Part shown: positions 2,870-36,472 of the stretch, in pieces
Position numbering within the stretch: position 1 is the first letter of the stretch
How the letters are laid out: every line of letters starts with the position of its first letter
From: Mytilus edulis
Taxonomy: Eukaryota
Direction: 5' to 3'
Assembly (NCBI RefSeq): GCF_963676685.1
Contig: NC_092349.1
Location: 2,046,001-2,110,000 of the forward strand
Length of the DNA stretch: 64,000 nucleotides
The notes under the pieces: model-generated
The model's input: only the letters and a program-made list of their open reading frames with translations
What the model was told of the DNA's origin: nothing
The model's database searches: none
Position numbers and translations under genes: made by a program

Positions 2870-4783
2870 CTAACATGATTGTAATTTATATAGTCTTATT
2901 AACTCTGTTTTATCTATTACAGACAACAGATTTCGACCAACGACTAAACTATTTCCGTCACCGAAGTAATTAGGAATTTTTAATGTTGACACTGGTTTCA
3001 AATCACCATCAACCGACAGAACACGCACTGCTTTTGATTCACGTAAGAATACATATATTTTACCATCATCAAAACAAACGCCTTCTGGGGTGTCATTTAA
3101 ATCGTATGTCCATTTGACGCGTGCATTTTGATTGAAACAAGAAATAAAACTGTTGGTTTTAGTTTCAATGCTAACTACTATATTCCCATTTGGAAGACAA
3201 CATATGCTTTTTAGAGGCATGATAAAAGGATCTCCAAACTCGTTTGGTTCGCAAAGAAAATTTTCACTAAAATGTTTAAGAACATTTCCATCGACGTCGA
3301 TGATGTCAATATGCGATGTTACACCACGTGACCAATCAAAGTTAACTCTTTTCTTTGAAGCACCACTGGGACTTGAATGACTAATGACTGCAAAAGTACA
3401 ATCCGGCAACTGAGAGATACTAAAGTACGCATTTTCAGTTACTTTTTCGGATATAATACTCAAACTGTTATAAGTTGATAAACGGATAAGACGCGATTGT
3501 TTCCCAGGGGAAGTAACTAAGACATCGTCGTTTTCATGGATATTGGTGATGTCGTATATACCTTGAATCAGAACTTCATCAATGAATTGATTTTCAATAG
3601 TGTCTCTGAATCTTTGTACCTTAAAGTTTGCATTATCTATAGCAATTATGGAATGTCCATGAATAATTACACCTGTAAATCTTGCAGTTATTTTATTTTC
3701 TGATTCACTCGGATCACGTTGAATTGCTAGAAACGGGTCAAGTTCTAATGCACGAAGAGGTAAAACGTCTGATGAAAATTTGATGCGCTTGCTGCATACT
3801 GTGGCTTCTGTGTCCTCGAAGTCGACTGCATCAGCAGGAACAACATGAACCGTTCCTATCGGTTGATCAATCAGTGTTTCACATAAATTCAGAAACTTTT
3901 CGTTTAGTTCCAGTTTAAGCTCAATTGGATTATCTGATACCGCAAGCGAATAAAGCAGATCCGTATTTTTCTGCAGACTTTCCGGAATTTTTGACAACAC
4001 GGTCAAAATGTCTTTAGTTGAAGTCAGGGATTTTGATAATTCTACTTCATCACGGATTCGTTTTAAATCTTTAACAATTCCTTCTGTTCTTTTCTTCAAT
4101 TCTTCTACGTTTGTAACGCTATCAACTTTGCTCAATATGTCTAAACATTTTCGATTTATCATTTTCTCAAAATCTTGAACAATTGTCTTCAATTTGTAAA
4201 TAGTACTTCTTATCTGCTGCCTTGATTGCACCAATAATTGATCTTTGTCGATCTCTTTAAAGACAATATCCTGTCCGGTGATTATTAAATTTTCTATTTC
4301 GTCATACGCATCTCTCAATTTTTCCCTTGCTAAGTCGGCACACTTTTTGAAATTTTTGCAATTACATTCGGTACCCCTATGATTCTCAACAGCACATTCG
4401 GAACATATAATTTTATAACACCCAAAACAGAAAAAGTCACACAAGTTTTGTGGGTGATCGGAACATAGTATACCATCTTTAGGTTTTGTTTCCGTTTTTG
4501 TATCACCTGATATAGCCTGGAGTAGCAGTAGAGATAACTCGTCTGTTGGAAAGGAACTAGCCCATTGTTCTGCTGATATGGTATAAGATGACGCTGTAAT
4601 CTCGCGTCTATCCACAGGACACGAGAATTTGTTAAAACGTCTAGTTGATTCTATCAATTGGGTTAAACATTCAAAGCATATCGAATGGTCACATGGTAAT
4701 AGTTTCGGATCTTTTAAAGTGTCCCGACATATAGGACAGGATAAATGATCAGATGTTATATTATCTGCTAGTCTTCTCTGCAT
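2870..4783 (-). CDS. TRIM E3 ubiquitin ligase (RING, B-box, coiled coil, NHL-like beta-propeller), paralog 1, 637 aa
   Basis: RING CPIC..LPCDHSICFEC..CPVDR; B-box CSDH..FCFGC..ICSEC..H; helical region; C-terminal propeller-like repeats. ATG 4783 (MQRRLAD) follows acceptor ttttatAG (4786-4785), so the ORF-track start at 4801 is intronic. Confidence 0.92.
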   Translation of the reverse strand: MQRRLADNITSDHLSCPICRDTLKDPKLLPCDHSICFECLTQLIESTRRFNKFSCPVDRREITASSYTISAEQWASSFPTDELSLLLLQAISGDTKTETKPKDGILCSDHPQNLCDFFCFGCYKIICSECAVENHRGTECNCKNFKKCADLAREKLRDAYDEIENLIITGQDIVFKEIDKDQLLVQSRQQIRSTIYKLKTIVQDFEKMINRKCLDILSKVDSVTNVEELKKRTEGIVKDLKRIRDEVELSKSLTSTKDILTVLSKIPESLQKNTDLLYSLAVSDNPIELKLELNEKFLNLCETLIDQPIGTVHVVPADAVDFEDTEATVCSKRIKFSSDVLPLRALELDPFLAIQRDPSESENKITARFTGVIIHGHSIIAIDNANFKVQRFRDTIENQFIDEVLIQGIYDITNIHENDDVLVTSPGKQSRLIRLSTYNSLSIISEKVTENAYFSISQLPDCTFAVISHSSPSGASKKRVNFDWSRGVTSHIDIIDVDGNVLKHFSENFLCEPNEFGDPFIMPLKSICCLPNGNIVVSIETKTNSFISCFNQNARVKWTYDLNDTPEGVCFDDGKIYVFLRESKAVRVLSVDGDLKPVSTLKIPNYFGDGNSLVVGRNLLSVIDKTELIRLYKLQSC

Positions 4784-4845
4784 TCTATAAAAGGAATACA
4801 AATCTATATGTTAATTTAGAAATATTCTCAGGCATAATATTATTA

Positions 4846-13786: not shown

Positions 13787-15866
13787 TCATCGCAACTTAT
13801 ATATTTTAATTAAATCAGTTTTGTCTATCACAGTCAAAAGATTTCTGCAAACAATTAAATTATTCCCGTCACCGAAGTAGTTAGAAAGTCTTAACGTTGA
13901 CACTGGTTTCAAATCTCCCTCAACTGATAAAACACGCACTACTTTCGATTCGCGTAAGAATACATATATTCTGCCATCATAAAAACAAACACCTTCTGGG
14001 GTGTCATTTAAATTGTATGTCCATTTGACGCGTCCGCTTTGATTAATGCAAGAAATAAAGTTGTTTGTTTTTGATTCAATGCTAACCACTATAGCCCCAT
14101 TTGGAAGACAACACACATTATGTAGAGGCATTATAAAAGGATTACCGAATTCGGATGGTTCACAAATACAAGACTCACTTAAATGTGTTAAAACATTTCC
14201 CTCGACGTTGATAATATCAATATGTGACGTTACCCCACGTGACCATTCAAAATTAATCCTCTTGTTTGAAACGCCACAGGGACTTGAATGACAAATCACT
14301 GCGTACAGATGATCTGGTAATCGTGATATATCATAATACGCCTGATCAGTTACAGTCTTTGAAACTATGCCCAAACATTTGTAAGTTGACAAACGGAAGA
14401 GACACGACTGTTTCCCAGGGGCAGTAACTAGGACATTGTCGTCGTCTTGAATATTTGCAATAGCGTATACACCTTGAATTGAAATTTCATCAATAAACTG
14501 TTCTTTCACATTGATCCGGAATCTTTGTACCTTAAAATTGGCATTGTCTATCACAATTATCGCATGTCCATAAAGAATTAGACCTGTAAATCTTGCGGTT
14601 ATTTTGTTCTCTAGTCCAATTGGGTCAACTTTATCACTGTACTATTGTGCATATTTTAGGGGCCAGCTGAAGGACACCTACGGGTGCGGGAATTCTCGCT
14701 ACATTGAAGACCCATTGGTTGCCTTCGGCTGTTGTTTGCTCTATGGTCGGGTGGTTGTCGCTTTGACATATTCACCATTTCCTTTCTCAATTTTATTTAA
14801 TCTCGAGAAAAGGTTCCAGTTCAAGTGCTCGAGAAGGTAATACGTCTGAAGAAAATTTGACTCTCTGACTGCAAACTGTGGCCTCCGTATCTTCAAAATC
14901 TAAGGAATCAGCAGGCAGAACGTGAACTGTTCCAATTGGTTGATCAACAAGTAAGTCACACAATTCAAGAAACGTTTCATTTAGTTCAAGTTTTATCCCA
15001 ATTGGATCATCTGATACTGCAAGGGAATTTAGCAGATCAGTATTTTTCTGTATACTGTCGGGAATTTTCGATAAAACAGTCAACATATCCTCGGTTGAAG
15101 TTTGAGATTTGGAATGTTCTATGTCACCACGGACTCTTTCTAATTCTTTAACGATTCCTTCCGTTTTTTTCTGCAGTTGTTCAACGTTTACAACGCTTTC
15201 AACTTTGTTCAAAATGTCTAAACTCTTTCGATTTACCCTTTTCTCGAAATCATGAACGATGCTCTTTAATTTAAAAATAGTAGTTTTAATTTGCTGTCTT
15301 GATTGCATTAGGAGTTGATCTTTTCCAATCTCTTTATAATTAGTAACGATGTCCCGTCCGTAGCTAATTATATTTTCTATTTCGTCAATCGAATTTTTCA
15401 ATTTCTCTCTTGCTAAGTCGGCACATATTTTGAAATTCTTGCAATCACAGTCGAAACTGCTATGTTTGTCAACAGCACACTCGGAACATATTATCTGATA
15501 ACACCCGAAACAGAAAAAGTCACAAAATTTCTGAGGATGTTCGGAACAAGGTATATCATTTTTATAGTTTTCTTGCGTTTTAACACCACCCGAGATAGCT
15601 TGTAATAACACTACAGCTAAATCGTCTGTTGGAAAAGATTTAGCCCATTCTTCTGCTGATATTGTGTAAGATGGCATTGTTATCTCACGTCGGTCCACGG
15701 GGCACGTGACTTTGTTAAAACGTCTTGTTGAGTTTATCAACTGGGTCAAACATTCACAACATAAAGTATGGTCACATGGTAATAATTTTGGGTTTTTTAA
15801 TGTGTCTCTACATATAGGACAAGATAAATGATCAGATGCTATGTTATCTGCAAGTCTTCTCTGCAT
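13787..15866 (-). pseudogene. TRIM paralog 2, disrupted by a 166-bp insertion (or a truncated RING-B-box-coiled-coil allele)
   Basis: ATG 15866 after acceptor AG 15869-15868. Removing 14630-14795 restores ...LEIK|VDPIGLENKITARFTG... and a 1914-nt (637 aa) frame colinear with the paralogs. Confidence 0.85.
14630..14795 (+). mobile_element. 5'-truncated 3' end of a Penelope-like retroelement family
   Basis: Absent at the equivalent site of paralogs 1 and 3; its reverse complement matches 54445-54611, the 3' end of the RT-bearing element. Confidence 0.85.
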
Positions 15867-18123
15867 TCTGTAAAAGAATAAATGTTTTATGATCTGCTTA
15901 TATCTCTGAAACAGTAGAGGAAACACCTCAACTTATAATGTATAAAAACAGAATTTCTATAAGAGTCAGCCACCAATCGTATGCAGGAGAAACCATTCCC
16001 TTAACCAAGTGTAATATATATTAATATCAAATATCGTCATCGATACCTAAACCTTTAAACATGTATACAAGTTCTGGAAGTAATTGTGCTGGAAAATTAT
16101 TTTTATCCGTATACAATTTTAGCTGCATGCATATGTTAACGGAATAGAAGCATGATAGAGATTATTAGTGTTTAAGCTAAAACGACTAATTTATTAAATA
16201 ACCAATGTTCTTTCTTTTGAGTATTATTATTTAGTGATTTATTCGGCGAATTTACACATCAATAAATTTCTAAGAGACTACAATATTTCTCATCCAAAAC
16301 CAAGTTATGTGAATCCATTTTTATACTAATTGAATTAATCATTTAAGTATGACGTGTCTTTACCTAAAAAGGTTAAAGAGCAAAAACAAAAATAAAAAAA
16401 AATACGGAGGTTGCCAATTATTTTCGCAATGATCTTCTAAGACCATGTGCTTTTCAGAGTAAAGCATCATCGTATCGTCCACCGCTACTTATGTTTCTAG
16501 AGCGTAAATTATAATATTAATTTCAGAATTTTTTTTTTTTAAATGATATTCTATCATCACGTACTTATACCTACATTATATTATTTGACATTGGACTAGT
16601 TTTTTGTATTTGATGTAGCCTTGCAATTGTTTCTATTCGATCGCCACTGAGAAGTCTTCTGAAATCTAAACAGTGTCTTTCATACCAAATTATAACTCTG
16701 ATATCTGTTTTGAATTATTTTGCAACCAATGGGTTGAAGACAATACGGATCGACGTTCGGTCACCTTGTGTATCAAAAACGCAGTAATCAGCATTTAAGT
16801 GTTGAAAAAAAATAACATTGATACCACCATACCGTTTCATCAGGTAATAATCTTCTACAGTAGTTCGTACATATACATATATATCTTATATTGTGTGTTT
16901 TAAGTAAATTGATGAAAATCCTGAATGATACTGATGTATAAGTTTAGCATGGTATCAATATCAGTTTATAATGTAATGACATACATAGAATTGTCTTATA
17001 ACTTGTTGTTACATGCATCGTTATTTCATTTATATGTTGTTTAATATTATAATTATCTGAATTTGGATCACGCCTCTATTGTGCTCTTTCCAATAAAATA
17101 TTGAATTGAATTGAATTGATATAATAATTATCTGTATATATGTCATGTATGTACTGTTTATAAAATGTTGATTTTTTCGAGAGAAGGCACACCTATTCGG
17201 CGTTTCGGTTTGTTATGCTCTTCGAATCCTAATTAATTTGCATTCGATATAGAAGGACCGAGCAATTTGATTATTAAATGATAAGCCTAGTATCTTTGAT
17301 AATTTCGAAATTTGTTCCGTGACTGCGAGTAAACGTAGCTTGTAACTTCATGTTTTGTCTCCCTAGTTTGCTGTTTGTTTTGCTTCGTGTCGGTCTTATG
17401 AGTCAAACTATTTCCATCTGGTTTTTATAGTTTGTTCTTGAATTGTGCTGTGCATGGTTAGGGAGATTTATGCTTGTGACAAGATTGACCATGTTGCGTT
17501 CTCTTTATTCCGGTTATGTTTCGGGCGCCCTTGATGTAATGGTTGTCGTGTGTTGCTTTGTGTGATCCTTTTATCTTTTATCATAAATCAGGATGATCAT
17601 TTTAATTCATTTGAATTATTACACAATACCATGACTAACGCCATGTAAATCCATGGCATATAGTTATAATATGTAGATTCAGTTAGGAGGGTTAAGAGAA
17701 TTGAGTTTGATTAGGTAGCCTTTTCTACAGGACACAATCGAGCATAGGTCAAACACCATGTATATAGCCATTCTATGAACTCGACTTGTTCAACATAGAA
17801 CATGCTTTTGAGTTTGCATGTGGGTGGGGAGATGGTTGAAACAACATTAATATAGAAAAGTCTCTTATTAGATACCACTAATATGATACATTTTAAGTGA
17901 GAATAACTTTGTAATTTACTAACTTATATCCAATCATTTTATTGTTGTTTAGAACGCATTTTTCTCCTAGCAGTACTGAAGAGTCTACTTGGCTCTCTTT
18001 ATAATGGACTTTCATTATCCGAATAAAAAAAAATAATACAATACATAACTATATTGTAAATCGTCAACATATGAATATTTCTTGAATATAACAATAATGT
18101 ATGAACTTTGATATACAAGATAT

Positions 18124-22069: not shown

Positions 22070-23977
22070 TCATTGTAATTTATAAAGTTTTATAGAACTA
22101 GTTTTGTCTACCACTGTCAAAAGATTTCTGACTACGAGTAAACTACTGCCATCACCAATATAATGAGGAAGTTTAAAGGTGGACGTTGGTTTCAAACCAC
22201 CCTCAATCGACAGGACACGCACTACCTGAGATTCCCGTAGGAACACATATATTTTTCCATCATAAAAACTAACGCCTTCTGAAGTATCATTTAAATTATA
22301 AGTCCATTTGACGCGTCCGTTTTGTTTAATGCAAGAAATAAAACTGTTGGTTTTAGTTTCAATGCTAACTACTATAGTCCCATTAGGAAGGCAGCACATA
22401 CTTTTTAGAGGCATAATAAAGGGATCACCGAATTCGGTTGGTTCACAAAGAAAGGATTCACTAAAATGTTTCAAAACATTTCCATCGACGTTGATGATAT
22501 CAATATGTGACGTAACCCCACGTGACCAATCAAAATTAGCTCTCTTTTTGAATGCACTGCTAGGTCTTGAGTGACAAATGACTGCGAACGCAGAATCTGG
22601 CAAACGCGAAATATCATAATAGGCCTTATCAGTAACTGTCTCTGACATTATGCTCAAACTCTTGTAAGTTGATAATCGAAAAAGACGCGATTGTGTCCCA
22701 GGGGAAGTAACTAATAAATCGTCGTTGTCATGGATATTGGTGATATCGTATGCACCTGGTATTGCAATTGCATCGATGAAACTATCTTTAATTGTGTCTC
22801 GGAATCTTTTTACTTTAAAGTTTGAATTGTCAACGGCAATTATTGAATGTCCGTGAAGTGTTAAACCTGTAAATCTTGCAGAATTGTTTTTCTCTAGTCC
22901 ACTTGGTTCATCTTTAATCTGGAGAAATGGTTCAAGTTCAAGTGCACGAGAAGGTAAAACATTTGATGAAAATTTGATTCGCTGGTTGCACACTGTAGCC
23001 TCCGTGTCTTCGAAATATAATTTATCCGCACGAACGACATGAACTGATCCTATTGGTTGATCCACAAGTTTGTCACACAAATTCAAAAACGTTTCATTTA
23101 GTTCAAGTTTTATCTCAATTGGGTCATCTGACACTCCAAGTGAATTGAACCGATCAGTATTTTTCTGTAGATTTTCAGGAACATTTGATAAAACGGTTAG
23201 CATATCCTTGGTTGAAGTTTGTGATTTTACATATTCTATTTCATCACGGACTCGTTTCAAATCTTTAACAATTTCTTCTGTTTTTTTCTGTAGTTCTTCT
23301 ACGTTTACAACGCTTTCAACTTTGCTTAATATGTCCAGACATTTTCTATTTACCATTTTCTCAAAATTATAAACGATGGACTTCAATCTTAGAACGGTAT
23401 CTTTAATCTGCTGTCTGGATTGCGACAAGAGTTGATCTTTTTCAATCTCTTTAGTGACGATTTCCTGTCCGTGACAAATTAGGCTTTCTATTTCGTCAGA
23501 TGCATCTCCTAATTTCTCTCTTGCTAAGTCGGCACAGTTTTTGAACTTTTTGCAATTGCATTCGGTACTTCTGTGATGCTCAACAGCACATTCTGAACAT
23601 ATAATATGATAACACCAAAAACAGAAAAAGTCACAAACATTATGAGGGTGTTCGGAACAAAGTATCGCATTTTTAGATTTTCCTTGCGTTGTCACATCAC
23701 CTGCAACAGCCTGAAGCAAAACTATAGCTAACTCGTCTGTTGGAAAGGAATTAGCCCATTCTTCTGCTGATATATTATAAGAAGGCGCTGTTATCTCTCG
23801 TCGGTCTACTGGGCATGAAAATTTGTTGTAACGTCTTGACGAATGTATCAGCTGGGTTAAACATTCACAACATAAAGTATGGTCACATGGTAGTAGTTTC
23901 GGATCTTGAAAAGGGTCTTGACATATAGGACAAGACAAATGGTCAGATGCTATATTATCCGCAAGTCGTCTCTGCAT
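22070..23977 (-). CDS. TRIM E3 ubiquitin ligase paralog 3, 635 aa
   Basis: Same architecture; 39 of the first 50 aa identical to paralog 1; acceptor ttttcAG 23980-23979 one base before the ATG. Confidence 0.92.
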   Translation of the reverse strand: MQRRLADNIASDHLSCPICQDPFQDPKLLPCDHTLCCECLTQLIHSSRRYNKFSCPVDRREITAPSYNISAEEWANSFPTDELAIVLLQAVAGDVTTQGKSKNAILCSEHPHNVCDFFCFWCYHIICSECAVEHHRSTECNCKKFKNCADLAREKLGDASDEIESLICHGQEIVTKEIEKDQLLSQSRQQIKDTVLRLKSIVYNFEKMVNRKCLDILSKVESVVNVEELQKKTEEIVKDLKRVRDEIEYVKSQTSTKDMLTVLSNVPENLQKNTDRFNSLGVSDDPIEIKLELNETFLNLCDKLVDQPIGSVHVVRADKLYFEDTEATVCNQRIKFSSNVLPSRALELEPFLQIKDEPSGLEKNNSARFTGLTLHGHSIIAVDNSNFKVKRFRDTIKDSFIDAIAIPGAYDITNIHDNDDLLVTSPGTQSRLFRLSTYKSLSIMSETVTDKAYYDISRLPDSAFAVICHSRPSSAFKKRANFDWSRGVTSHIDIINVDGNVLKHFSESFLCEPTEFGDPFIMPLKSMCCLPNGTIVVSIETKTNSFISCIKQNGRVKWTYNLNDTSEGVSFYDGKIYVFLRESQVVRVLSIEGGLKPTSTFKLPHYIGDGSSLLVVRNLLTVVDKTSSIKLYKLQ

Positions 23978-26523
23978 TCTGAAAAAGAATATATAGATAT
24001 TGTAAGATGTGGTATAATTGTCAATGAGATAACTCTCTATCTAAGTCATAATTCAAAACACTTAAACCACTACAGGTAAAGAAACGGTCTTCAACACGGA
24101 GCTTTGGCTCACACCAAACAGCAAGCTATAAAGTGCCACCAAAAATTACAAGTGTAAAACCATTCAAACGGGAATTATAACCAACAGTATAATCTATATA
24201 GGAAATGTGTGATGTGTTTTTCCAGGCATGCTGGTTTTTTTTTGTATCATCGTCCTCTTTGTTAAACAACCGATCAAAACATTATTGTAGCTACAATTGC
24301 TCATTTACCAACATGAACCGGATTGAACTTTTAAGATAACTTGGGAATATAATTATGGTCGTATTTCAGATCGGAAATAACGCTTGCTAAAAAAAGGCGT
24401 TAATTTCCTATGCGGGATTAACAAGTACACAGCCACGTCCGGTAAGAATGAGTATGTTTAGTCCGTTTCCTCGTTTAGAGAGTGCGCCACTACCTGTACG
24501 TTAAGAGCCCTCGAATAGCTGTTTTGGGAATTGACTATATGTGGTCTGCTACAAGTTAAAATGTATTTCCAGTATATATATATATATCCTCATTTTCCGC
24601 TGACAGTCAAGATTTCCCGACTTTCTATTCATCCCAGGCGGCCTATTACTACAGGAACAGCCTCTACATGGGTAACTATCGTATTTATCTCATTTTGTTT
24701 AAATTAAATATTTGCCTCTAGACATTAAGCAACTAATAATCAATCATCAATCAGTCAGCACCACAGGCAATCACATGTTATTCTGTATGTTGAATCTTAT
24801 TTATTTATTGCTTGCGCAAACACACTTTCTACAGAAAGATAAGGCTTAAATTGAAAATAAAAAAACTGCATGTTTAGACTAATTGTTTACAATCAAAAAT
24901 TGGACTTCAACTGCCTCTAAAACTACCTTTACCGAAAACTTCAATCAACAACTTTTAACCCTGAAGCCGGATAGACGGACAAAGGACGAAGGAACGGATG
25001 TACAGACCAAAAAACATAATGCCCCTTTCTGGGGTATGAAAGTGTTAGAAAGAGTATTATGCTTTTGTTAGAGATGATGATTTTTTTAGCTCTTTTTTAA
25101 CGTCGTCAGTGTCAAATATTTTAAACAAATCTAGGAAAACAAATTAACAATTAAACTTAATAGTTGTATGGCCTTATATAGTAGCCAATTGAACTGCAGA
25201 CGGTGAGGCACTTACTACCTGTACATGGCCTAGGATTTTGCATTCCAAATCAAACACTTTCAGGGCTCTGGAATACTAAATTTATAGAGGGGGATGACGT
25301 TTAGATTATGTTAATATATCTGTTGGCTGTTATATTTGTGACTGTTTTGAATTAAAGGAGATCAGGTATGAACACCGACACTAAGTCAAGTAAATAGTTT
25401 GAGAATAAATACATATATAATGTAATTTTATAGTTCTTTTATTTACAAAGAAAAATTAACTAAATATATTTAGGAATGGGAACTATAAATCCCTGTGCAT
25501 CATCGCCACCGGAAATGGTTACCTACGAAGCGGCTAGCATTGGAAAAATATAAACAATGTAAGAATTCCTTTAAAATTAACCATTTCTACAGATAAAGTA
25601 AACGCTTTCGAAAGTATTTTAAAAAGTTCATTTTTTTTTTATGTCACATGTAGCAAAGAAAGAGAAGATTTTTTGTTGTACTCTTTGGTACGAGAAAAAT
25701 CATTATATTTCAAGACAAAGTTTTTGTTTATGATTCTGTGATCATTTTATATTTACTGAAATTCATTATCCAAAAGATGCATTTTTTTGTGCATATATCT
25801 GTGTGTTTCTTTATTCTACATTGGCTAAAGGTATTGGGGGAGGGGTTGAGATCTCAGAAAACATTTGTCTGCTAATTGTTGGCAAATAAAAAATAAAAGC
25901 TTCATATATCAGAAAATCGTTTCAAAAAACGGTAACCTCATCGAAACGGTAGAAATGGTTAAACATAAAGGAATCATTACTCGTTTTCATTTTTTTTTTA
26001 CTTTCTCTCCAAAAACCAATTTCAGATGATGACACAAAAAGTTCATTGGAGTTCATTGAACTTTAAGCATTATATATTCCTGGTAGTTTTTCCCACCTAT
26101 TAAAATATTTGCAAGCTGGAAAATATTACCTATTTCAGCAAAACATCCTATCCTCATATTTATCATTTGTATCTATTGAAATGGCTATACAATCATTCTA
26201 AGGTTGTCATTTTTGGAAAATAAAGTGGTTAGAAAACGAAAGTAGAATGTTCAAAATTGTTATGTATGACCTTAGATTGGTTCTTACAGGAAGTTTTCAT
26301 AATATTCGACCATATACACATTTCTAATTTTATCGAGCTGCAGTGAAAATTCTGCTTCGTTTCGCAACACATGAATTTTCAACATCCACAACAGTAACCA
26401 AGGTTCGCCTAGTACATATATGACATTTTGTACATTTGTTAACATATCAATATTTTCTTGATTGATATGATAAATTTTTATCATGAAAGTATATATTAAC
26501 TACGTAATGGTATTTACTATATT

Positions 26524-26745: not shown

Positions 26746-26910
26746 ACACGAGTCATGCATATGTTATACGTGGATGCTTTTTTACTGGTTTTACAAAATG
26801 AATGTATAACAACGGATTAAAAAGAGGGTGGGGGGGGGATTTTTTCAATTATTTTTTTTTCATCTTAATTCACTTGCTATACTTAACTTTTGTTTGGCAA
26901 TATGACTTTT

Positions 26911-27107
26911 CAATTTGCTCTTTCGAAGTAAATAGACGCAGATATATTAAAGATATGAGACGACTGGATGCAAAGCAATACTAAATAAATGCTCAGTAGG
27001 AATTAAAACGAATTAAAATAAAACATTTAATTTTGGCAAATTATTACAATTTCATATGAAAAAACAATAATAGACGTTAAAGTTAATCCAATCAATGTTC
27101 AGCACCA
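26911..27107 (-). repeat. Split direct repeat B2 (197 bp)
   Basis: No differences seen against 27594-27790. Confidence 0.95.
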
Positions 27108-27376
27108 CCATTCATCAACAACACTTTGACCACACGTCTGTATTCAGCAGGCAACGATAAATCGGACATCTACACCATTGTGAATTAATCCGTATCCAAA
27201 TTATCGGTTATAAACTCTATTGCTCCTTTATTGTCCTTTAATCAGTCGATTATATTGTAAATTCGTATATCCACAGTAACACCGTCAAGGAACATACACT
27301 GAAAAATAAAACTTCCACAGAAAATGAGACTGAAACTACTGATTATAAATATTGGGTGGGATAAATAATGGGAGGG

Positions 27377-27790
27377 TTAGTTTTCGGCTATTGACGGCAG
27401 AATGAAAAACTTAAAATTCTTTAAATCACAAGTATATAAAGGAACCAATCAGAATGCATTGTTATGTTATAAAATTCATAACAAGTTGTATCATTAGCTG
27501 TATGTAAAGAACCGAAATAATTCGAACAGTATAAAGTCTATTTCTTTTATCTCTAGTCGCCAATTATATATTTTTAATTAATTAAAAATAGCACAATTTG
27601 CTCTTTCGAAGTAAATAGACGCAGATATATTAAAGATATGAGACGACTGGATGCAAAGCAATACTAAATAAATGCTCAGTAGGAATTAAAACGAATTAAA
27701 ATAAAACATTTAATTTTGGCAAATTATTACAATTTCATATGAAAAAACAATAATAGACGTTAAAGTTAATCCAATCAATGTTCAGCACCA
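27377..27790 (-). repeat. Internal B1-A2 repeat junction
   Basis: 27377-27595 matches 33174-33392; 27594-27790 matches 26911-27107; the two overlap by CA. Confidence 0.95.
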
Positions 27791-27884
27791 AAACCCCAAC
27801 GGCCAAACAGTAACTACAGCACATTGATTGATATTAAACAAAATTTAAAAGCTATTTAAGTTACAAGCAAAAATAATGAAAATA

Positions 27885-28068
27885 CTGACATGAGTGGTCA
27901 GAAATCACAAAATATCACTGACATGAATGGTCAGAAATCAAAAAATATCACTGACATGATTGGTCAGATATTTCTAACAAATACATATAATAATACCGAC
28001 ATGAATGGTCAGATATCAAACAATACCACTGACATGAATGGTCAGATCTTTCTGACAAGATTGGCCAG
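27885..28068. repeat. Array of six 17-bp palindromic units CTGAC-N7-GTCAG in the element's 3' UTR
   Basis: Units start at 27885, 27918, 27951, 27996, 28029, 28052. Confidence 0.9.
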
Positions 28069-28197
28069 AAAACAAAATGTTCCCTTAAGGATATATACAA
28101 TCACCCACTACTGTAAGCACAATTAGACAAAAAAGGCACAGAATAAGATTGCTCCTTCTGTTTAACAGTAACAAGATGAGACTTAACATCCTCTTGT

Positions 28198-28722
28198 TTA
28201 ACAATGAGACAATACTTGAACAAAAAAATTTGTCAATTTCAAATTACCAAAATAATTCAAATGTAACTTACAGATGGGTGAATAAAGTTCACAAACTGGC
28301 ATCCCAAACTTTAAAAAAGGTTTATAAGTAGCTACAAACTGAACACCACGTTTAAAGCATAAACTTCTTAATCTAGAATTAATAGTAGTGACAAAATAAC
28401 TTGTATTCTGAAAATCAAGTAAGCGTGGAATAATTGCTGACATAACTATGACAGTATGTGGCTTAACTAATTTCTCAATTGTAGAGATAAGCACATTATA
28501 GCCTATATCAAAATCAGCAATCTCATAGGTACCAACATTGTTGGTTCCTACATGCATCAGAATTATATCATAATTTACCTGAATTGTTCCACAATTAAGC
28601 AAATTGATCATATCCCAAATATTTGCTCCAGGAAAGGCTTGCAAGTGACACCTTCTAATTGTTTTAACATGCTTGGCTATGGAATCGCACACCAGAGTAG
28701 ACCTAAAATCTATAAAGAGCAA
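28198..28722 (-). CDS. SGNH/GDSL hydrolase-like ORF of the Ngaro element
   Basis: Block I CDS(I), block II PGA, block III HVGTNN, block V CKLHLN; true start unresolved. Confidence 0.8.
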   Translation of the reverse strand: MLFIDFRSTLVCDSIAKHVKTIRRCHLQAFPGANIWDMINLLNCGTIQVNYDIILMHVGTNNVGTYEIADFDIGYNVLISTIEKLVKPHTVIVMSAIIPRLLDFQNTSYFVTTINSRLRSLCFKRGVQFVATYKPFLKFGMPVCELYSPICKLHLNYFGNLKLTNFFVQVLSHC

Positions 28723-28725
28723 AAT

Positions 28726-29718
28726 TTATTTTAAAACAAAGTCTTTAATTTGTTCCGCTACATTGATTTTATCAGACAAAGAACTGACAATATATTTAGT
28801 ATAGCAATTGCTTTTCCAATCACCCATCAATTGAATAGAACTAGGAGAAACCCCTGCTTTCGATGCCAACGTTGCTCCACCTCTTCGGAAACTATGGGAA
28901 GAAAATAAATTTGGATTTAATCCAATTTTACAAAGTAATTCTCTCAGTTTATTCTGAAACTGGTTATAAGTAATTGGTATGCATTTCCCCTTTTTTTTAT
29001 AAGAAAAAGCGGCATCATCTGACGTGCAAGGATTTAAAGAACACATCCTTTTATATGCATTTACTGGGCAAAATTTAGATAGAGGATATGCAAGCAAAGG
29101 TATCCTTAAAATACGATTACCCAACTGAATTGTTTTTGTCCATTTGAATGCAACTATTATAAGAGACGGAAAGACTGTAACATCACCTCTGCACAGCTGT
29201 TTATTTTTGTCAAATTTCTTGGTTGATACTGGAACTAAATTAGACTTCCTGCTTAAAAGTAATAAAGCAAAAAGAAATAAACACCAATATGTCGCATCTA
29301 GCGGCGTATTCAAATTCAAATGTTCACGAATTTTTCCTAAAATTTCTAAAGTAATAGGAAATGCCTGTTTAGGTAAATGTTTTAATTTCCTATCTAACCC
29401 TTTCATAGTCAACTTCAATTCGTAAGACGAAAAAACATCCACATGTAATCCTAACAACAGGAAAAGAACTTTAACTCCGTTTAAATAATTGCGAATAGAT
29501 TGAGCTGATCTGAAACTTCTACTGAGAAACTCGGAATAAGTGCATAATAATTCAGAATCAATATCAAACGGTTCTAAATAAAAGTAATTACAAAACAATA
29601 AATAAGCTCTCCACTGCGTTTTAAAATTAACCAAAGTACCTTTCGCGAAAGCCGAAATCCTAGTCACAAACATATCTCGTCTTAGCACTTGCAAATCTAC
29701 AAAAACACGAATAAACAA
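28726..29718 (-). CDS. Tyrosine recombinase (YR)
   Basis: LSRKSNL (R), KWTKT (K), HSFRRGGAT (HxxR), GDW..YTKYI (W, Y); first ATG at codon 16. Confidence 0.95.
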   Translation of the reverse strand: MFIRVFVDLQVLRRDMFVTRISAFAKGTLVNFKTQWRAYLLFCNYFYLEPFDIDSELLCTYSEFLSRSFRSAQSIRNYLNGVKVLFLLLGLHVDVFSSYELKLTMKGLDRKLKHLPKQAFPITLEILGKIREHLNLNTPLDATYWCLFLFALLLLSRKSNLVPVSTKKFDKNKQLCRGDVTVFPSLIIVAFKWTKTIQLGNRILRIPLLAYPLSKFCPVNAYKRMCSLNPCTSDDAAFSYKKKGKCIPITYNQFQNKLRELLCKIGLNPNLFSSHSFRRGGATLASKAGVSPSSIQLMGDWKSNCYTKYIVSSLSDKINVAEQIKDFVLK

Positions 29719-31491
29719 TTACCAAATATGTTCAAACTGAAACAATTCTTTAGAAATCAAATCTCTAAATAGGGACATGCCTTTTGTCCTCTCGTAAAAG
29801 TCTAACTGAAATTTATAATCTAAATTCCATCTAGACAAAAGATCTGGTAAACGGTTATCGCAACCTGAAATATGTTTAGCTTTTAACTCAAAATTATTTA
29901 CAGCTGCAATCCAACAAACTTCCCTCAAACACGACTGCAGGAACTCATTTCTGGTGGCGCCTGTATTCAAAACACGTACTGATACCATATTATCGCAATA
30001 AATAATCACCTTTAAATTTGTGAAATGTTTTCCCCATAATTTCAAGGCTACTACAATCGTCAACATCTCTAATAAATTTATATGCAAGTTTTGATCTAAA
30101 ATAAACTCTGGAAATGAACAGTGAAAGTATCTTCCGTCCATCCATCCGCCACATCCTGTCAAACATGCATCAACAGAAAACAATTGATCAGGGTTTGAGA
30201 ATTCATCAGATAAAATCATAGAAATCCCATTATAACTAGGCAAAAATTCCTGCCACCAGAATAAATCACGTTTAAAATCAGTTGGAATTACTATTTTCAC
30301 ATTATCAGGAAAATCTCTTAACCAATTTAACAGCCTTGACACAAAAATTCGGCCAGAGCGCACACATTGAGATACAAAATTTAATTTTCCCAGCAATGAT
30401 TGTAATTCTCTCTTTGTACAATTTGTGCTACAGAGCCAATTAGAAACTAACTGCAGAATCTCTGACAATCTTTGAGTGTCAATAGAAATTGTCATGTTCT
30501 CAGAATCAAATAAAATGCCAATAAACATCATTTTAGTAGTAGGCGGACAAGCCTTCTCAATTGATTCTTCAATGCCACAATTCTGTAAAATAAGACCCAA
30601 TTTAGCATAAGCATCATCACTGCTGGAAGGAATATCACATCCAGCCAAATCATCTAAATAGTTCAAAATATCTATACCCATGTTTTGACATATAAATGCA
30701 ATAGCATTTGTTGTTCGCATACATATATATGCAGCAGATCTCAACCCCATTGTTAATACACGATCGTAATACAAGTGTCCTCTCCATTTGTAACCTAAGA
30801 GATGGATGTCACCGGGGTCAACGACTAATTGTCTATAAGCCCGTTTCAGGTCCCTCTTAAACATTCTGCAACCTTGACCTTTACTCTTAATTAACATAAT
30901 AAAATTATCAACCGTGGGATACGAAACTGAAATTTCATCGCCTAAATAACGATCTTTGAAAATACCAGAATTAACCGCCTCGCCCTCTGGAAAGCTCAAA
31001 TCAACAATAACTCTGCGTTCTGTTGAATCCTTTTTAGGAACGGAATTTAAAGGAGATAAAGCTGAAGGACAGCTGAACGGATTTGCCTTAAATGGTCCAA
31101 CAATTGCTTTATAAGAACTTTCTTTTTTCAAATATTTGGCAATATCATCTGGAAAATCAGTAGCCCCCGAATGATTACGGGAAAAAGATGACCTGAACGG
31201 GCTCCCATCGTGACCCACCGGCCATCCATACTCTAAGAAGTCACAAACCTGAGCGTCACTGTAATTCTGTAACAAACTTCTTAAAAAAAAAATATTGATT
31301 TTAGAGTAAATTGGAATTTTACAACCCTGAAAATTGTACAATCCAGATTTTTTAACAATGTTATGAATAGATACAAAATTTTGCATATCATCTAAACCCA
31401 AATAACTGTTACAACAAAGACTGCATTTAAGTGAATGTCTAGAACCCCATAATGTCTTTTGAAAATCAAGTAACTGAACATGTTGATTTAG
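29719..31491 (-). CDS. Reverse transcriptase-RNase H (DIRS/Ngaro type)
   Basis: RVIVDLS, DLKRAYRQ, MGLRSA, YLDD; RNase H VDAC..HINLLEM..YCDN..DLLSR. Frame is open from 31491, directly after the gag stop; first ATG at 31386. Confidence 0.95.
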   Translation of the reverse strand, partial: LNQHVQLLDFQKTLWGSRHSLKCSLCCNSYLGLDDMQNFVSIHNIVKKSGLYNFQGCKIPIYSKINIFFLRSLLQNYSDAQVCDFLEYGWPVGHDGSPFRSSFSRNHSGATDFPDDIAKYLKKESSYKAIVGPFKANPFSCPSALSPLNSVPKKDSTERRVIVDLSFPEGEAVNSGIFKDRYLGDEISVSYPTVDNFIMLIKSKGQGCRMFKRDLKRAYRQLVVDPGDIHLLGYKWRGHLYYDRVLTMGLRSAAYICMRTTNAIAFICQNMGIDILNYLDDLAGCDIPSSSDDAYAKLGLILQNCGIEESIEKACPPTTKMMFIGILFDSENMTISIDTQRLSEILQLVSNWLCSTNCTKRELQSLLGKLNFVSQCVRSGRIFVSRLLNWLRDFPDNVKIVIPTDFKRDLFWWQEFLPSYNGISMILSDEFSNPDQLFSVDACLTGCGGWMDGRYFHCSFPEFILDQNLHINLLEMLTIVVALKLWGKHFTNLKVIIYCDNMVSVRVLNTGATRNEFLQSCLREVCWIAAVNNFELKAKHISGCDNRLPDLLSRWNLDYKFQLDFYERTKGMSLFRDLISKELFQFEHIW

Positions 31492-32958
31492 TCATTCATT
31501 ATGATGAGGACATGCAGACGAACATTCAGGATGATGACTTTTAAGTTTGTCTAATCTATAACAAGTGGCACAAAAATGATTAACCTCACGTTCAACACCT
31601 CTAATCAGAATTTTATGCGGTGATGTTTTTGAACATTTATTTTTCTGAAATAACGAACAATACCATAAAGTATGTGTCTTGGTCTCTTTTTTAGCCCCAA
31701 AAGAATGCTTCTTATCGAACTCTTGTTTGACATATTTAGACAAAAGAGGAACTTCCAAATTATCAGGAGTATCTTTCCAGGTTTTAGCACCCGTTTCAAT
31801 TTGTCTCAAAAAGGCAGCATAGAAGTCAAGTAAAGATTTCCACTGATAAATGGAACTGTAATATACAATTTTCTTCAAAAGGGACAATCGAGTATTTCTC
31901 TCGATAGCTTTAATTTTACTTGATCCAATTATTTCTAATTCCCCTGCAACAAACAGCTTTAAATCTAAATCTTGAAATGAAACAGATTTATTTATATATT
32001 CGTACTGAAGTGTAGTATGGGGCCAAGTTTGTGGATTCTGCACGTCATCGCTTGCTTTAGCAACCATACCCGATTTAACCTTTCGCTTTTTAAGTGATTT
32101 CTTTTTACAGGACGAATCTGTACCTGATGTACTTGAAGTATCATCATCAGTACTAGACTCGAATGAATCATAGTCAGAACTATCAGATGACTCTGATATT
32201 ACTCTTGACTTGTGTTTTGTCACCCTGGAGCTACCCGACTTTTTAAACTTTTTGGCCTTAGCCGATTTAACCTTCGGGACATGAATACTGTCGTCCGAAT
32301 CGGAATCAGAATATTGTAAAGGAACTTTTGAACTCTTCTTTTTCAAAGATTTGTTTTTACGTTTGCGTAAATGCGAAGAAAAATCATGCTCACTAGTAGA
32401 ACTACCATGAGGACTTTCACTAGAATCAACTAAATCTATTAAATTATTCTTTTTTAAAATATCTGATAATTGTTTCTCTACTAATTTAGTCAACACTTTC
32501 TTTTTTCTTAATTTGTCTAAATTGATCTCACCCTTCCTTTTAACACTTTTGGAGTCGCTGGTGTCTTTTCTTTTCGCTGATTTGGTCTTTTTACCGGCTA
32601 TTTCAGTTGATTTCACTTTAGGAGCACTCGACTGTGGCTTGTGCGGATTGTTCGACTTCTCAACTACACCTTTCTCCTTGACCGGATCAATAAGTTTACT
32701 CGACTCCCCATTTTTCAAACGAGTTTTTGGGATAGCCCCCTGTTTTTCAAAATCGGATTTTTCAAGTTTCCTTTCTTTTTCGGAAATGCTTAACTCTAAA
32801 TTGTGGATCCTATGTTCCAACCTATCCACTTCATCAGGTGAAGTCTCATGATCAAAAATGTCAGAAGTAGGGTCCGAAACATCGAGAACGTCCTGATCAA
32901 AACCAAATTCACTTAATAGTTTATAATTTTTTCTAGCTTTATTTCGGGTTACAGGCAT
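31492..32958 (-). CDS. Gag-like ORF1, 488 aa
   Basis: ACCATG at 32958; coiled coil, Lys/Ser-rich region, C-terminal Cys/His cluster (C..C..H..HFCATC..H..C). Confidence 0.85.
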   Translation of the reverse strand: MPVTRNKARKNYKLLSEFGFDQDVLDVSDPTSDIFDHETSPDEVDRLEHRIHNLELSISEKERKLEKSDFEKQGAIPKTRLKNGESSKLIDPVKEKGVVEKSNNPHKPQSSAPKVKSTEIAGKKTKSAKRKDTSDSKSVKRKGEINLDKLRKKKVLTKLVEKQLSDILKKNNLIDLVDSSESPHGSSTSEHDFSSHLRKRKNKSLKKKSSKVPLQYSDSDSDDSIHVPKVKSAKAKKFKKSGSSRVTKHKSRVISESSDSSDYDSFESSTDDDTSSTSGTDSSCKKKSLKKRKVKSGMVAKASDDVQNPQTWPHTTLQYEYINKSVSFQDLDLKLFVAGELEIIGSSKIKAIERNTRLSLLKKIVYYSSIYQWKSLLDFYAAFLRQIETGAKTWKDTPDNLEVPLLSKYVKQEFDKKHSFGAKKETKTHTLWYCSLFQKNKCSKTSPHKILIRGVEREVNHFCATCYRLDKLKSHHPECSSACPHHNE

Positions 32959-33173
32959 GGTAAGCCTCCTGTGTAAGACAGGGCAACTTGAAAAAGTAAT
33001 TATTTTTTTTGCAACAAATGACTTGATAAAAAATTTAAAAGACAAAAAGAAAAAGAAAATTAAACACCAAAAAAGTACTTACGAAAAATAAAGATACAAA
33101 AGTTTCACAGCTCAAATAAATCAAAAGTAGTTGCCATGCCTCACAGGATGAACTTTCAACGGAAAACACAACA

Positions 33174-33392
33174 TTAGTTTTCGGCTATCGACGGCAGAAT
33201 GAAAAACTTAAAATTCTTTAAATCACAAGTATATAAAGGAACCAATCAGAATGCATTGTTATGTTATAAAATTCATAACAAGTTGTATCATTAGCTGTAT
33301 GTAAAGAACCGAAATAATTCGAACAGTATAAAGTCTATTTCTTTTATCTCTAGTCGCCAATTATATATTTTTAATTAATTAAAAATAGCACA
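33174..33392 (-). repeat. Split direct repeat A1 (219 bp)
   Basis: One mismatch seen against 27377-27595 (ctatcg vs ctattg). Confidence 0.95.
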
Positions 33393-35472
33393 CTTAAAAT
33401 AATGGATCGAATAGTTGATTTATCTTACATTTTTATTTGTGTTACTTTTCACAAAAAAAAAAATGGATCAAATAGTTGATTTATTAGATACATTTTTAAT
33501 TTGTTTTGTGATTTCGTAAACTTCAATGTGTTTGTGTATTCCAAACTGCTACAGTCATGTTGTCTACACTGTTCTTAAATTTTGAGTGAAGGGGTCAAAA
33601 CACAAAATCAAATTTTTAACCACTTATTGCACATGGTCTAATTAAATAAAATGCACACACATTGCATCTATAAAGACAACGTTGATTGTATATGAACAGA
33701 AACTAACAATTTTCTCTCAACATTTCATGGAACATATCGAAGAGCAGCCCGCCCCCTCTCTTTTGTAAAATTAATATAGTTCCTCTTTTGGTATCGTGTA
33801 GTTTGCAATCAGCGAGAATTACTTCAGGAAAAAAGTTACTGTGATGCTTATTAATCGTCCATAGTGGTTAAACTGACAAATTCAACACTAGTCTAGGATA
33901 AATATATAATCACTTGAATATTTAAATGCAGATATAATTTTTGATGTTTTAATTTTTTCGGGATATTGAATTTCACACTTTTTTCGTTCACTAAAAGAAT
34001 AATATGATTTGTTTAATTTGGTATTTGATATAGGAACAATAAATTACCACGAATATCCGGATTATAAATGTCTCCTGAAATAAATTTTGTACATTTTGTT
34101 TTGCTTTGAAATACAGAAAAAACACATTTATTGTATCCCCCCCGCTCTAAATTCCTATGAGGCCTCCGTAGTAATATTAAAAAAACGACAACCAGCTGAT
34201 GATCTGGTGATCTGTACGCCGAAAAAATCCGAAAAAAAACTTGCATTGTCAACACTAATACAAAGTTAATAATTATTTGTTACATGTATAACATAACAAC
34301 TAATTTTAGCAGTAAAAAGAAATAACAAAACAATGCCCGATATAATATACAATAGTGTTTGTTTGAATTTTTAGTCCTCAATGCTCTTCAACTTAGTGGC
34401 TTTATAACTATTTTGATCTGAGTGTCACTGATGAGTCTTATGACGTTACGTTACGTACGGCAATGCGTTCGAATTAAAATACATTATATTATTGCATAGC
34501 AATATAATATCTCCCATAGAAAGTAACCAAAAGTTAGCGTGCGATAAATTATTATTTTAGAACCAGCAACTATTCGCCTATGCAAAATAAATACACCAAC
34601 ATGCATATCTTTTTTTACATAAATAAGGCCGTTAATTTTCTCGTTTAAATGTTTTACGTTGTCTTATCGGGGCCTTTTATAGCTGACTATGCGGTATAGG
34701 CTTTGCTCATTGTTGAAGGCCGTACGGTGACCTATAGTTGTTTTAATGTCTGTGTCATTTTGGTCTTTTGTTGCTAGTTGTCTCATTGGCAATAATGCCA
34801 CATCTTCTTTTTTATATATATCTACAGAAAGGCCTTGACAGGTTTTTCTTATTTTAAATAGCCGTTTTTTTGGCGTTGGGTGAAATTTGAAGGAAGTCCT
34901 CAACGAAGTATTCAGCAGAGGAACCGGTCTTTATGCGCTATAAAGAAACTTAATCAAATTTCGAAATGTATTATAATCACTAACTTATATATAATCCAAT
35001 CATATTAAACTATACTCAATAGAAAGTTCTGAAAACGATAACCAATTTCAAAGTTTAAATGTAAATAAAAACTTTTACGTAGAAATGGAAAATTGTTTTG
35101 AACTGTTATGAGGTTACATGGAATGAGTTTCGTGATACATGTAGTCTCTACAGATCCATGCGCCTATATTATTCTATAATCAGCTGACGAAAGTTTCTTT
35201 TTATGTAAAAGTATTAACTCTGAAATATTTGTCACATAGGCTGTTTCTGCATGTCAGTGATTTGTAAACTCAGACTCATCATTCTGAGTTAGGTTTATTA
35301 TAAATGTTATAGACAACCTCAAATGCATACCCTGCAACATTTAAAAATACAATAAGATACTATACACACGTACGAACAACGATAACGCTAATTATATATA
35401 TTTCTACTATCAACGCATCCATGCCAAGAAATTGCCTCCGTTGAAATCTTGCAAACATCCCATAGAGCAAAT

Positions 35473-36067: not shown

Positions 36068-36472
36068 ATATAAAAAAGAAGATGTGGTATGATTGCCAAT
36101 GAGACAACTATCCACAAAAGACCAAAATGACACAGACATTTTCAAATACAGGTCACCGTACGGCCTTCAACAATGAGCAAAGCCCATACCGCATAGTCAG
36201 CTATAAAAGTCCCCGATAAGACAATGTAAAACAATTCAAACGAGAAAACTAACGGCCTTATTTATGTAAAAAAAAAAACGAAAAACAAATATGTAACACA
36301 TAAACAAACGACAACCACTGAATTACAGGCTCCTGACTTGGGACAGGCACATATATAATAAAAAACCCTCCCCCAAACCTGGCACAGTGGTATAACAGTA
36401 CAATATAAGAACGAACTATAAAATTCAATTGAAAAAGGCTTAACTCATCAGATGGATATAATACAGGTGGAC
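36068..36472 (-). mobile_element. 5'-truncated non-LTR/SINE-like insertion
   Basis: Absent from the duplicate unit (ggagtta|ggctat at ~38660); flanked by GTTA; same family as 9262 and 34611. Confidence 0.85.

Follow-up and report, generated by a model that had tools for sequence, protein, structure and literature searches.

Tyrosine recombinase (YR) retrotransposons are usually drawn with three or four separate open reading frames (ORFs), and the accessible parts of that literature leave the translation of the recombinase and the hydrolase unexplained. Among the closest described systems, Xenopus DIRS-53_XT and DIRS-54_XT carry repeats in the arrangement A1...B1 A2 B2, four separate overlapping ORFs and no methyltransferase, and the function of the SGNH hydrolase of Ngaro-like elements is regarded as unproven (available text of PMC9210276). 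Here we analyze an Ngaro-type YR retrotransposon on the minus strand of a 64,000-nucleotide (nt) stretch of Mytilus edulis DNA (contig NC_092349.1, positions 2,046,001 to 2,110,000; hereafter the window). The element shares the repeats, the ORF order and the lack of a methyltransferase, reading A1, gag, reverse transcriptase (RT)/RNase H, YR, SGNH hydrolase, B1, A2, spacer and B2. It differs in that its ORFs abut, a 269-nt spacer separates A2 from B2, and the gag stop lies in a readthrough context. Moreover, its hydrolase, and very probably its YR, is an exon joined to Gag residues 1-142, whereas the available text of PMC9210276 mentions no splicing, intron or stop codon.

Retroviruses express env from a spliced subgenomic RNA. 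As far as the accessible part of PMC13517186 describes it, gammaretroviral gag-pol resembles the arrangement proposed here in that unspliced RNA yields Gag and a stop-suppressed Gag-RT, and downstream genes are reached through spliced RNAs. In the window, however, the gag stop is a UGA-C of type II, the alphavirus context, and no conserved structure was found downstream of it, where gammaretroviruses use UAG and a pseudoknot; the donor lies 142 codons into gag, so that the products are Gag fusions; and the integrating enzyme lies outside Pol. Elements of the DIRS order are not among the six reverse-transcribing virus families treated in the available part of PMC12440569, and the viral contigs that we searched contained no relative. 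A further comparison is offered by the non-long terminal repeat (non-LTR) element ZfL2-1, in whose ORF1 protein (ORF1p) an esterase follows a coiled coil and binds acidic lipids (PMC3905857, in part). Native splicing or readthrough of Ngaro or DIRS elements is not described in the accessible parts of PMC9210276, PMC7192593, PMC6681497, PMC3783388, PMC3266345, PMC4157794, PMC9341512, PMC9940879 and PMC13465315; the founding Ngaro papers lie outside this set. We consider it probable that the element is expressed by splicing a donor inside gag to the hydrolase, likely also by splicing it to the YR, and by predicted UGA-CUA readthrough into RT on the unspliced RNA.

A donor inside gag is joined to the hydrolase

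The features on which this part of the scheme rests are as follows.

31492..32958, minus strand: gag ORF, 488 amino acids (aa), with a predicted coiled coil at about aa 44-71, a basic Ser-rich linker and a C-terminal domain
32526..32531, minus strand: used 5′ splice donor inside gag, GT at 32531 (contig joint in three of four runs; gene models)
32532..32958, minus strand: coding portion of the common first exon (Gag 1-142 and one further base), 427 nt, phase 1
28198..28725, minus strand: hydrolase frame
28710..28711, minus strand: 3′ splice acceptor of the hydrolase, phase 1, which accepts foreign donors too
28198..28709, minus strand: SGNH hydrolase exon, giving a Gag(1-142)-hydrolase product of 312 aa

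A sequence-only reading of the window had proposed one leader donor and an acceptor for every ORF, giving alternatively spliced subgenomic RNAs. All six of its splice motifs are present on the minus strand: the GT of the leader donor at 33082, AGs at 32970-32969, 31407-31406, 29698-29697 and 28711-28710, and the GT of a gag donor candidate at 32531. As it noted, the YR and hydrolase acceptors and the gag donor candidate are all in phase 1. Both joins prove to be in frame; the first in-frame ATG of the hydrolase (28611) does lie 24 codons past its catalytic Ser codon (starting at 28683). With crude matrices, the gag-leader, YR, RT and hydrolase acceptors rank 1, 24, 105 and 140 among 348 AGs, the gag donor ranks 3 among 360 GTs, and the leader donor falls outside the top 15. 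Judged by sequence alone, most of the motifs do not exceed chance. It is evidence from RNA, gene models and related families that sets the gag donor and the acceptors of YR and hydrolase apart from chance; the leader intron and the RT acceptor gained no such support.

Assembled contigs were taken from four probable RNA runs of four studies (X1, X2, X10 and X13), whose RNA status is presumed rather than on record. The one GT..AG joint within the element, 28709/32532, skips 3822 nt and occurs in X1, X2 and X13, that is, in three of the four runs and in three studies. Its depth is 27.3, 38.7 and 12.7, and that of the skipped interval about 12, 14 and 6-9; contig depth is by the tool's own caveat a poor measure of expression, and these values no more than hint at a major product. 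Contigs also drop rare forms, and a joint missing from them is not proof of absence. The read check that the sequence-only reading had suggested thus recovered this joint in assembled contigs and none listed at the leader, RT or YR sites. The contigs of X10 and X13 carry foreign sequence at 28709/28710, X10 with the foreign junction and no gag-hydrolase joint. In raw RNA of X23, 11 reads leave the element at the hydrolase acceptor (28710) and enter a foreign exon, so this AG functions as an acceptor even with an unrelated donor. Five genomic sites carry the motif of the foreign exon, which is followed by GTAAGT at all five and lies behind an IS1595-type transposase.

The loci L059-L063 (L061:445-1524) represent a young IS1595/Merlin-type DNA transposon with at least five near-identical copies and a strong donor just past the transposase stop, and it is this donor that supplies the exon to the hydrolase acceptor in X23.

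Public gene models contain the same junction. P0121 (312 aa) consists of Gag 1-142 and the hydrolase joined at the predicted point, as does P0122 from another Mytilus species, and P0128 carries the junction as well; longer hydrolase relatives in the protein search numbered four. Of the 10 members of the P0121 cluster, two join gag straight to the hydrolase, five pass through the YR acceptor and three are fragments. Alternative isoforms in such gene models usually require transcript support. A joined form is also present in genomic DNA: L093 and L095, parts of one old copy (93-96% identical) found among 14 matches to the hydrolase start, have gag joined to the hydrolase at spliced length, with two mismatches in the first five bases, and are best read as a retrotransposed spliced RNA. 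At the level of the family, Gag(1-142) is spliced to the hydrolase. Since the hydrolase has no start before its Ser, the first exon gives it a start codon.

Acceptor phase is conserved across families

Relatives were scored by the phase of the best AG in a 90-nt window at the start of homology, a rule set after the own-genome alignments had been viewed. The M. edulis genome provided 34 loci in 15 families at 75% YR identity. Here the best AG was in phase 1 in 15/15 families for the YR and in 9/9 for the hydrolase (six families without a hydrolase match were left out), as opposed to 5/14 for RT and a null of 0.48 from 875 internal windows; in one of the 15 families the best YR AG lies upstream of a stop, and a second phase-1 AG lies at the anchor. 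A held-out set of 80 metagenome loci formed 56 new clusters, four loci of own-genome families having been removed. It gave phase 1 in 42/48 for the YR, 25/25 for the hydrolase and 13/35 for RT, with a null of 0.46 (1077 windows); 8, 31 (mostly for want of a match) and 21 clusters, respectively, were skipped. Mean held-out scores were 5.6, 6.3 and -0.5, and -0.2 for the null. The best donor in gag codons 60-200 was in phase 1 in 17/19 held-out elements and in 7/9 own-genome families (null 0.55). Conservation in relatives, on which the sequence-only reading had staked its AGs, therefore extends to the YR and hydrolase acceptors and fails for the RT acceptor and the leader intron.

The recombinase as a probable second exon

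28726..29718, minus strand: YR frame
29697..29698, minus strand: 3′ splice acceptor of the YR, phase 1 (cross-family phase; gene models P0011, P0124, P0126, P0127, P0129 and P0130)
28726..29696, minus strand: tyrosine recombinase exon, with a predicted 465-aa Gag(1-142)-YR product
29640..29696, minus strand: 57-nt YR mini-exon of three-exon gene models, donor GT at 29639, phase 1

The predicted YR junction is carried by the public models P0124, P0126, P0127, P0129, P0130 and P0011. The five members of the P0121 cluster mentioned above run from Gag 142 to the YR acceptor, leave the YR after 19 codons (donor 29639) and continue into the hydrolase, and P0011, with the gag-YR junction, continues into the YR for 192 residues. 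A Gag-like N-terminal motif and a whole YR are combined in two scallop models (462 and 463 aa), examined as protein sequences. Other junctions, in P0002, P0005, P0014, P0084 and P0133, look like weaker predictions. Mytilus and scallop gene models thus already contain the junctions found here under names such as ‘uncharacterized protein’, with no link to retrotransposons in the names (among them XP_063439984.1, XP_063439983.1, XP_052062920.1, XP_021350861.1 and XP_069136376.1). From the gene models and the conservation of the phase-1 acceptor, we strongly infer the Gag(1-142)-YR junction and a full-length fusion of 465 aa. Five X23 reads that run unspliced across the YR acceptor have a 2-nt gap at 29705, which is a variant and not a junction.

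Predicted readthrough of the gag stop

29719..31491, minus strand: RT/RNase H frame, 590 codons stop to stop
31406..31407, minus strand: AG earlier proposed as RT acceptor, phase 2
31489..31494, minus strand: gag stop TGA followed by CTA, predicted readthrough site in frame with RT

We rejected the AG to which the sequence-only reading had assigned RT: its phase does not match that of the gag donor, it scores at the null in relatives, and none of the 14 mapped proteins uses it. It is likely a chance AG. Readthrough, which had not been among that reading's proposals for gag-RT, fits the context of the gag stop. Among the nine own-genome families that could be scored (six could not), the stop is TGA-C in eight, followed as CTA in seven and CTG in one, and TGA-TGT in the ninth. 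The held-out set had 34 clusters with both gag and RT, from which we left out two without a stop before the contig end, one with an internal stop and L215; in the remainder the gag stop is TGA-C in 30/30, against 4/119 control stops of RT, YR and hydrolase, and is in frame with and open into RT in 28/30. In some relatives (L215, P0137 and P0141), gag and RT share one open frame. P0134 and P0135, which have Trp at the gag stop, were not counted as natural fusions; the gene caller probably read TGA as Trp. All four frames are in register in the window copy, and readthrough at the RT-YR and YR-hydrolase stops was considered as well. We rejected it because the frame offsets of relatives are spread there (15/11/20 and 10/10/7), which makes the register in the window likely a matter of chance.

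UGA-CUA by itself allows about 1.5% readthrough in human cells (PMC4132726, in part) and is a type II viral readthrough context in the accessible part of PMC13517186, in which the words ‘retrotransposon’ and ‘DIRS’ do not appear. The conservation of this context predicts that RT would be made as a Gag-RT/RNase H protein of 1079 aa by readthrough of the gag UGA-C.

A PAM2-like motif lies within 25 codons past the gag stop in four own-genome families (L047, L049, L052, L076, L162) and in 1/29 held-out elements; it is absent from the family of the window element.

Evidence against the scheme and alternative readings

A number of observations count against the scheme. For the hydrolase splice, 253 raw reads of four RNA runs include no joint inside the element, and the 28709/32532 joint has 29 letters on its short side. 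The variant letters of the contigs match sister copies rather than the private letters of this copy, and the RNA evidence therefore concerns the family and not this copy. The occurrence of a joined form in DNA takes some weight from the contig evidence: young intronless copies in the sampled animals may yield the contig joint. A phase-1 donor in gag is common by chance, as its null shows, and two of the nine own-genome families have theirs in phase 0; the held-out loci come from few assemblies and are related, so that P values overstate. The evidence underlying the gene models is not visible, and in this family the Mytilus models of RefSeq type exit the YR at its 19th codon; those that extend further are P0011 and the scallop models alone. 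The gag-YR joint occurs in none of eight runs (four raw, four contig), contigs of X1 and X2 cross the YR acceptor unbroken, and among the loci checked no genomic copy has a gag-YR joint or a leader-spliced joint. The YR of the window has an ATG (29673) eight codons past the acceptor, and in 21/48 held-out YRs a Met lies no more than 18 codons from the anchor. Past the gag stop there is no conserved structure (mean z -0.5, window +1.3; z below -2 in 3/30 elements and in 2/30 controls), one family has TGA-TGT and in one family a single copy is offset.

The gag UGA-C might be read as selenocysteine, or RT might be made by reinitiation at its own ATG, in place of near-cognate readthrough. The stop is always UGA and a Met follows soon after in several families, as these routes would have it; the interval 26800-33600, however, has no match to any Rfam model, SECIS included (divergent SECIS elements can escape), and reinitiation has no need of an in-frame open linker or a fixed C at position +4, yet both are kept. 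We regard this pair of routes as unlikely.

Similarly improbable is that only the hydrolase splice matters; translation of the YR would then begin at its own ATG (29673), through reinitiation or an internal start, and its acceptor would serve only the mini-exon or nothing in particular. Besides the missing gag-YR joint in the eight runs, it can draw on the Mytilus models, which take the YR acceptor for a 19-aa exon, and on P0001, which is annotated from an internal ATG. It does not account for the 27/48 held-out YRs without a Met within 18 codons of the anchor, for the YR acceptor being kept in all six own-genome families without a hydrolase match, or for the whole Gag-YR fusions of the scallop models.

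Splicing of the leader donor to an acceptor before each of the four ORFs, in the manner of a complex retrovirus and with each ORF using its own start, is highly improbable. It would begin with one further feature.

32969..33082, minus strand: candidate 114-nt leader intron (GT..AG), motifs present, retained in contigs

The description of this interval was accurate: it is 114 nt long and U-rich (51% T, without ATG), and the gag ATG (32958) follows 10 nt past its AG. All motifs are in place, with the acceptor before gag ranking 1/348; the leader donor is kept in 6/6 other covering copies, down to 72% identity, an in-frame ATG lies 19 nt past the RT AG, and one X2 contig starts exactly at 33083. 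The last point we rejected as splice evidence, since the depth at this break (12.4 on the exon side, 21.3 on the other) suits a variant better than a splice. The interval is retained in contigs of X1, X2 and X13, including the X13 contig with the gag-hydrolase joint, and an RNA spliced from the leader to the hydrolase would lack a start codon ahead of the Ser. Only one family of 26, that of the window element, combines a leader donor with a strong acceptor upstream of the gag ATG, and the RT acceptor is at the null (5/14 and 13/35). Raw reads have zero depth at 32889-33095 and are thus uninformative here. Splicing of the leader intron would be minor at most and confined to this family. What remains of the sequence-only reading is that subgenomic RNAs are alternatively spliced, from the gag donor to the hydrolase in contigs and to both the YR and the hydrolase in public gene models; they do not depart from a single leader donor.

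That the joined form is a transcribed DNA deletion derivative with incidental splice signals is scarcely credible: a joined copy does exist in the genome, many sister copies have internal deletions and the read evidence comes from probable RNA runs alone, yet the joint ends exactly at GT..AG, the same acceptor takes unrelated donors, phase is kept across distant families, and the genomic joined copy is unique among the 14 hydrolase matches, old, 5′-truncated, interrupted and without the 27894 variant common to contigs and young copies.

Layout and class of the element

33174..33395, minus strand: A1, 5′ split direct repeat, 222 nt, 99% identical to A2
27594..27790, minus strand: B1 repeat, 197 nt, 100% identical to B2
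27377..27598, minus strand: A2 repeat
27108..27376, minus strand: 269-nt spacer between A2 and B2, containing AG 27300-27299, the last acceptor in two gene models
26911..27107, minus strand: B2, 3′ terminal repeat; the element ends at 26911
27884..28076, strand unassigned: degenerate repeats with a period of about 33 nt in the 3′ untranslated part

The A and B repeats are 99-100% identical and the element is therefore young; its YR has at least 129 protein matches in its own genome. Pfam matches to RVT_1 (E 3e-4), Phage_integrase (E 1e-5) and Lipase_GDSL_2 each fall below the curated cut-off, and the YR motif columns are invariant. After RNase H there is no Pfam match to a methyltransferase, and methyltransferase motifs are absent. 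Split direct repeats, the lack of a methyltransferase and the hydrolase fit the published descriptions of Ngaro (PMC9210276, PMC7192593 and PMC4157794, as far as available), and the element is of the Ngaro type, a class that methyltransferase loss can mimic (accessible part of PMC4157794). We ruled out a PAT-like element, as defined in the available parts of PMC7192593 and PMC4157794, since there is no methyltransferase domain, and a DIRS-like (DIRS1) element, a class with inverted terminal repeats and an internal complementary region, since the long repeats here are direct.

Gag has no Pfam match and is named by its position and conservation. Its C-terminal domain (window 31495-32094) is helical and conserved, with invariant Cys and His; the predicted fold has a mean pLDDT of 89 and no PDB match by Foldseek or profile. 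The first exon, which lacks this domain, has the predicted coiled coil and a basic stretch (12 K/R in 33 residues). The solved structure closest to the hydrolase is ZfL2-1 ORF1p (PDB 4c1b, E = 0.002). The hydrolase of the window has the Ser, Gly, Asn and His and no Asp before the His, other families have the Asp, and the Ser is replaced in P0122; from these residues, its activity is not assured.

In many sister copies (L041, L042, L043, L045, L091, L092, L105-L107), the A repeat is joined directly to internal points of gag, RT, YR or hydrolase, at window 32583, 30252, 32393, 32608, 28985 and 28636 and never at a splice site, as if reverse transcription had halted early and jumped to A2. The closest full-length sister copy (L039/L040, 99%) has its RT split by an insertion of about 10.6 kb at window position ~29990. 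An X10 contig joins the A end (33174) to the B start (27790) without the 269-nt spacer, either a variant 3′ end or a replication product.

Downstream of the element, whose end lies about 2.9 kb from the nearest of them, are minus-strand genes with RING, B-box and coiled-coil regions and a beta-propeller-like end (2870-4810, 13787-15932 and 22070-24040), a cluster which we take to be TRIM-like. Upstream, long inverted repeats (34610-34817 and 36068-36274; 93-95% complementary, about 1.3-1.6 kb apart) probably belong to another mobile element.

Implications

In the proposed scheme, the unspliced RNA would serve as the template and be translated into Gag (488 aa), with small amounts of Gag-RT/RNase H (1079 aa) from readthrough, and RNAs spliced from the gag donor would give Gag(1-142)-hydrolase, Gag(1-142)-YR and the three-exon form of the gene models. 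The shared first exon would bring a start codon, which 27/48 YRs lack near their beginning, and a coiled coil, and may thereby anchor both recombinase and esterase in Gag assemblies. In the spliced product, predicted coiled coil, basic linker and SGNH esterase follow one another as in ZfL2-1 ORF1p (accessible part of PMC3905857), which is a single ORF where the window product is put together by splicing; acidic-lipid binding is a feature of ZfL2-1, and a like role for the window hydrolase is analogy only.

More tentatively, animal Ngaro elements may share an undescribed expression code, in which the N-terminal Gag exon is a common assembly tag on recombinase and esterase, RT is made by reading through UGA-C and the principal product is the Gag-esterase RNA. 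Splicing would then rebuild the membrane-binding coiled-coil-plus-esterase of non-LTR elements, perhaps matrix- or envelope-like, and the spliced RNA, which keeps the four repeats, could be copied into the genome as a non-autonomous element.

The scheme, with its exact junctions, would explain how four proteins come from one transcript, and it holds in more than 60 families or clusters. It implies that the proteins to express and study are Gag fusions rather than bare ORFs. It also contributes many candidate sites of UGA-C readthrough, and a set of bivalve gene models labelled ‘uncharacterized’ may turn out to be isoforms of retrotransposons. Because the strong hydrolase acceptor traps upstream donors, new insertions of the element can rewire host transcripts.

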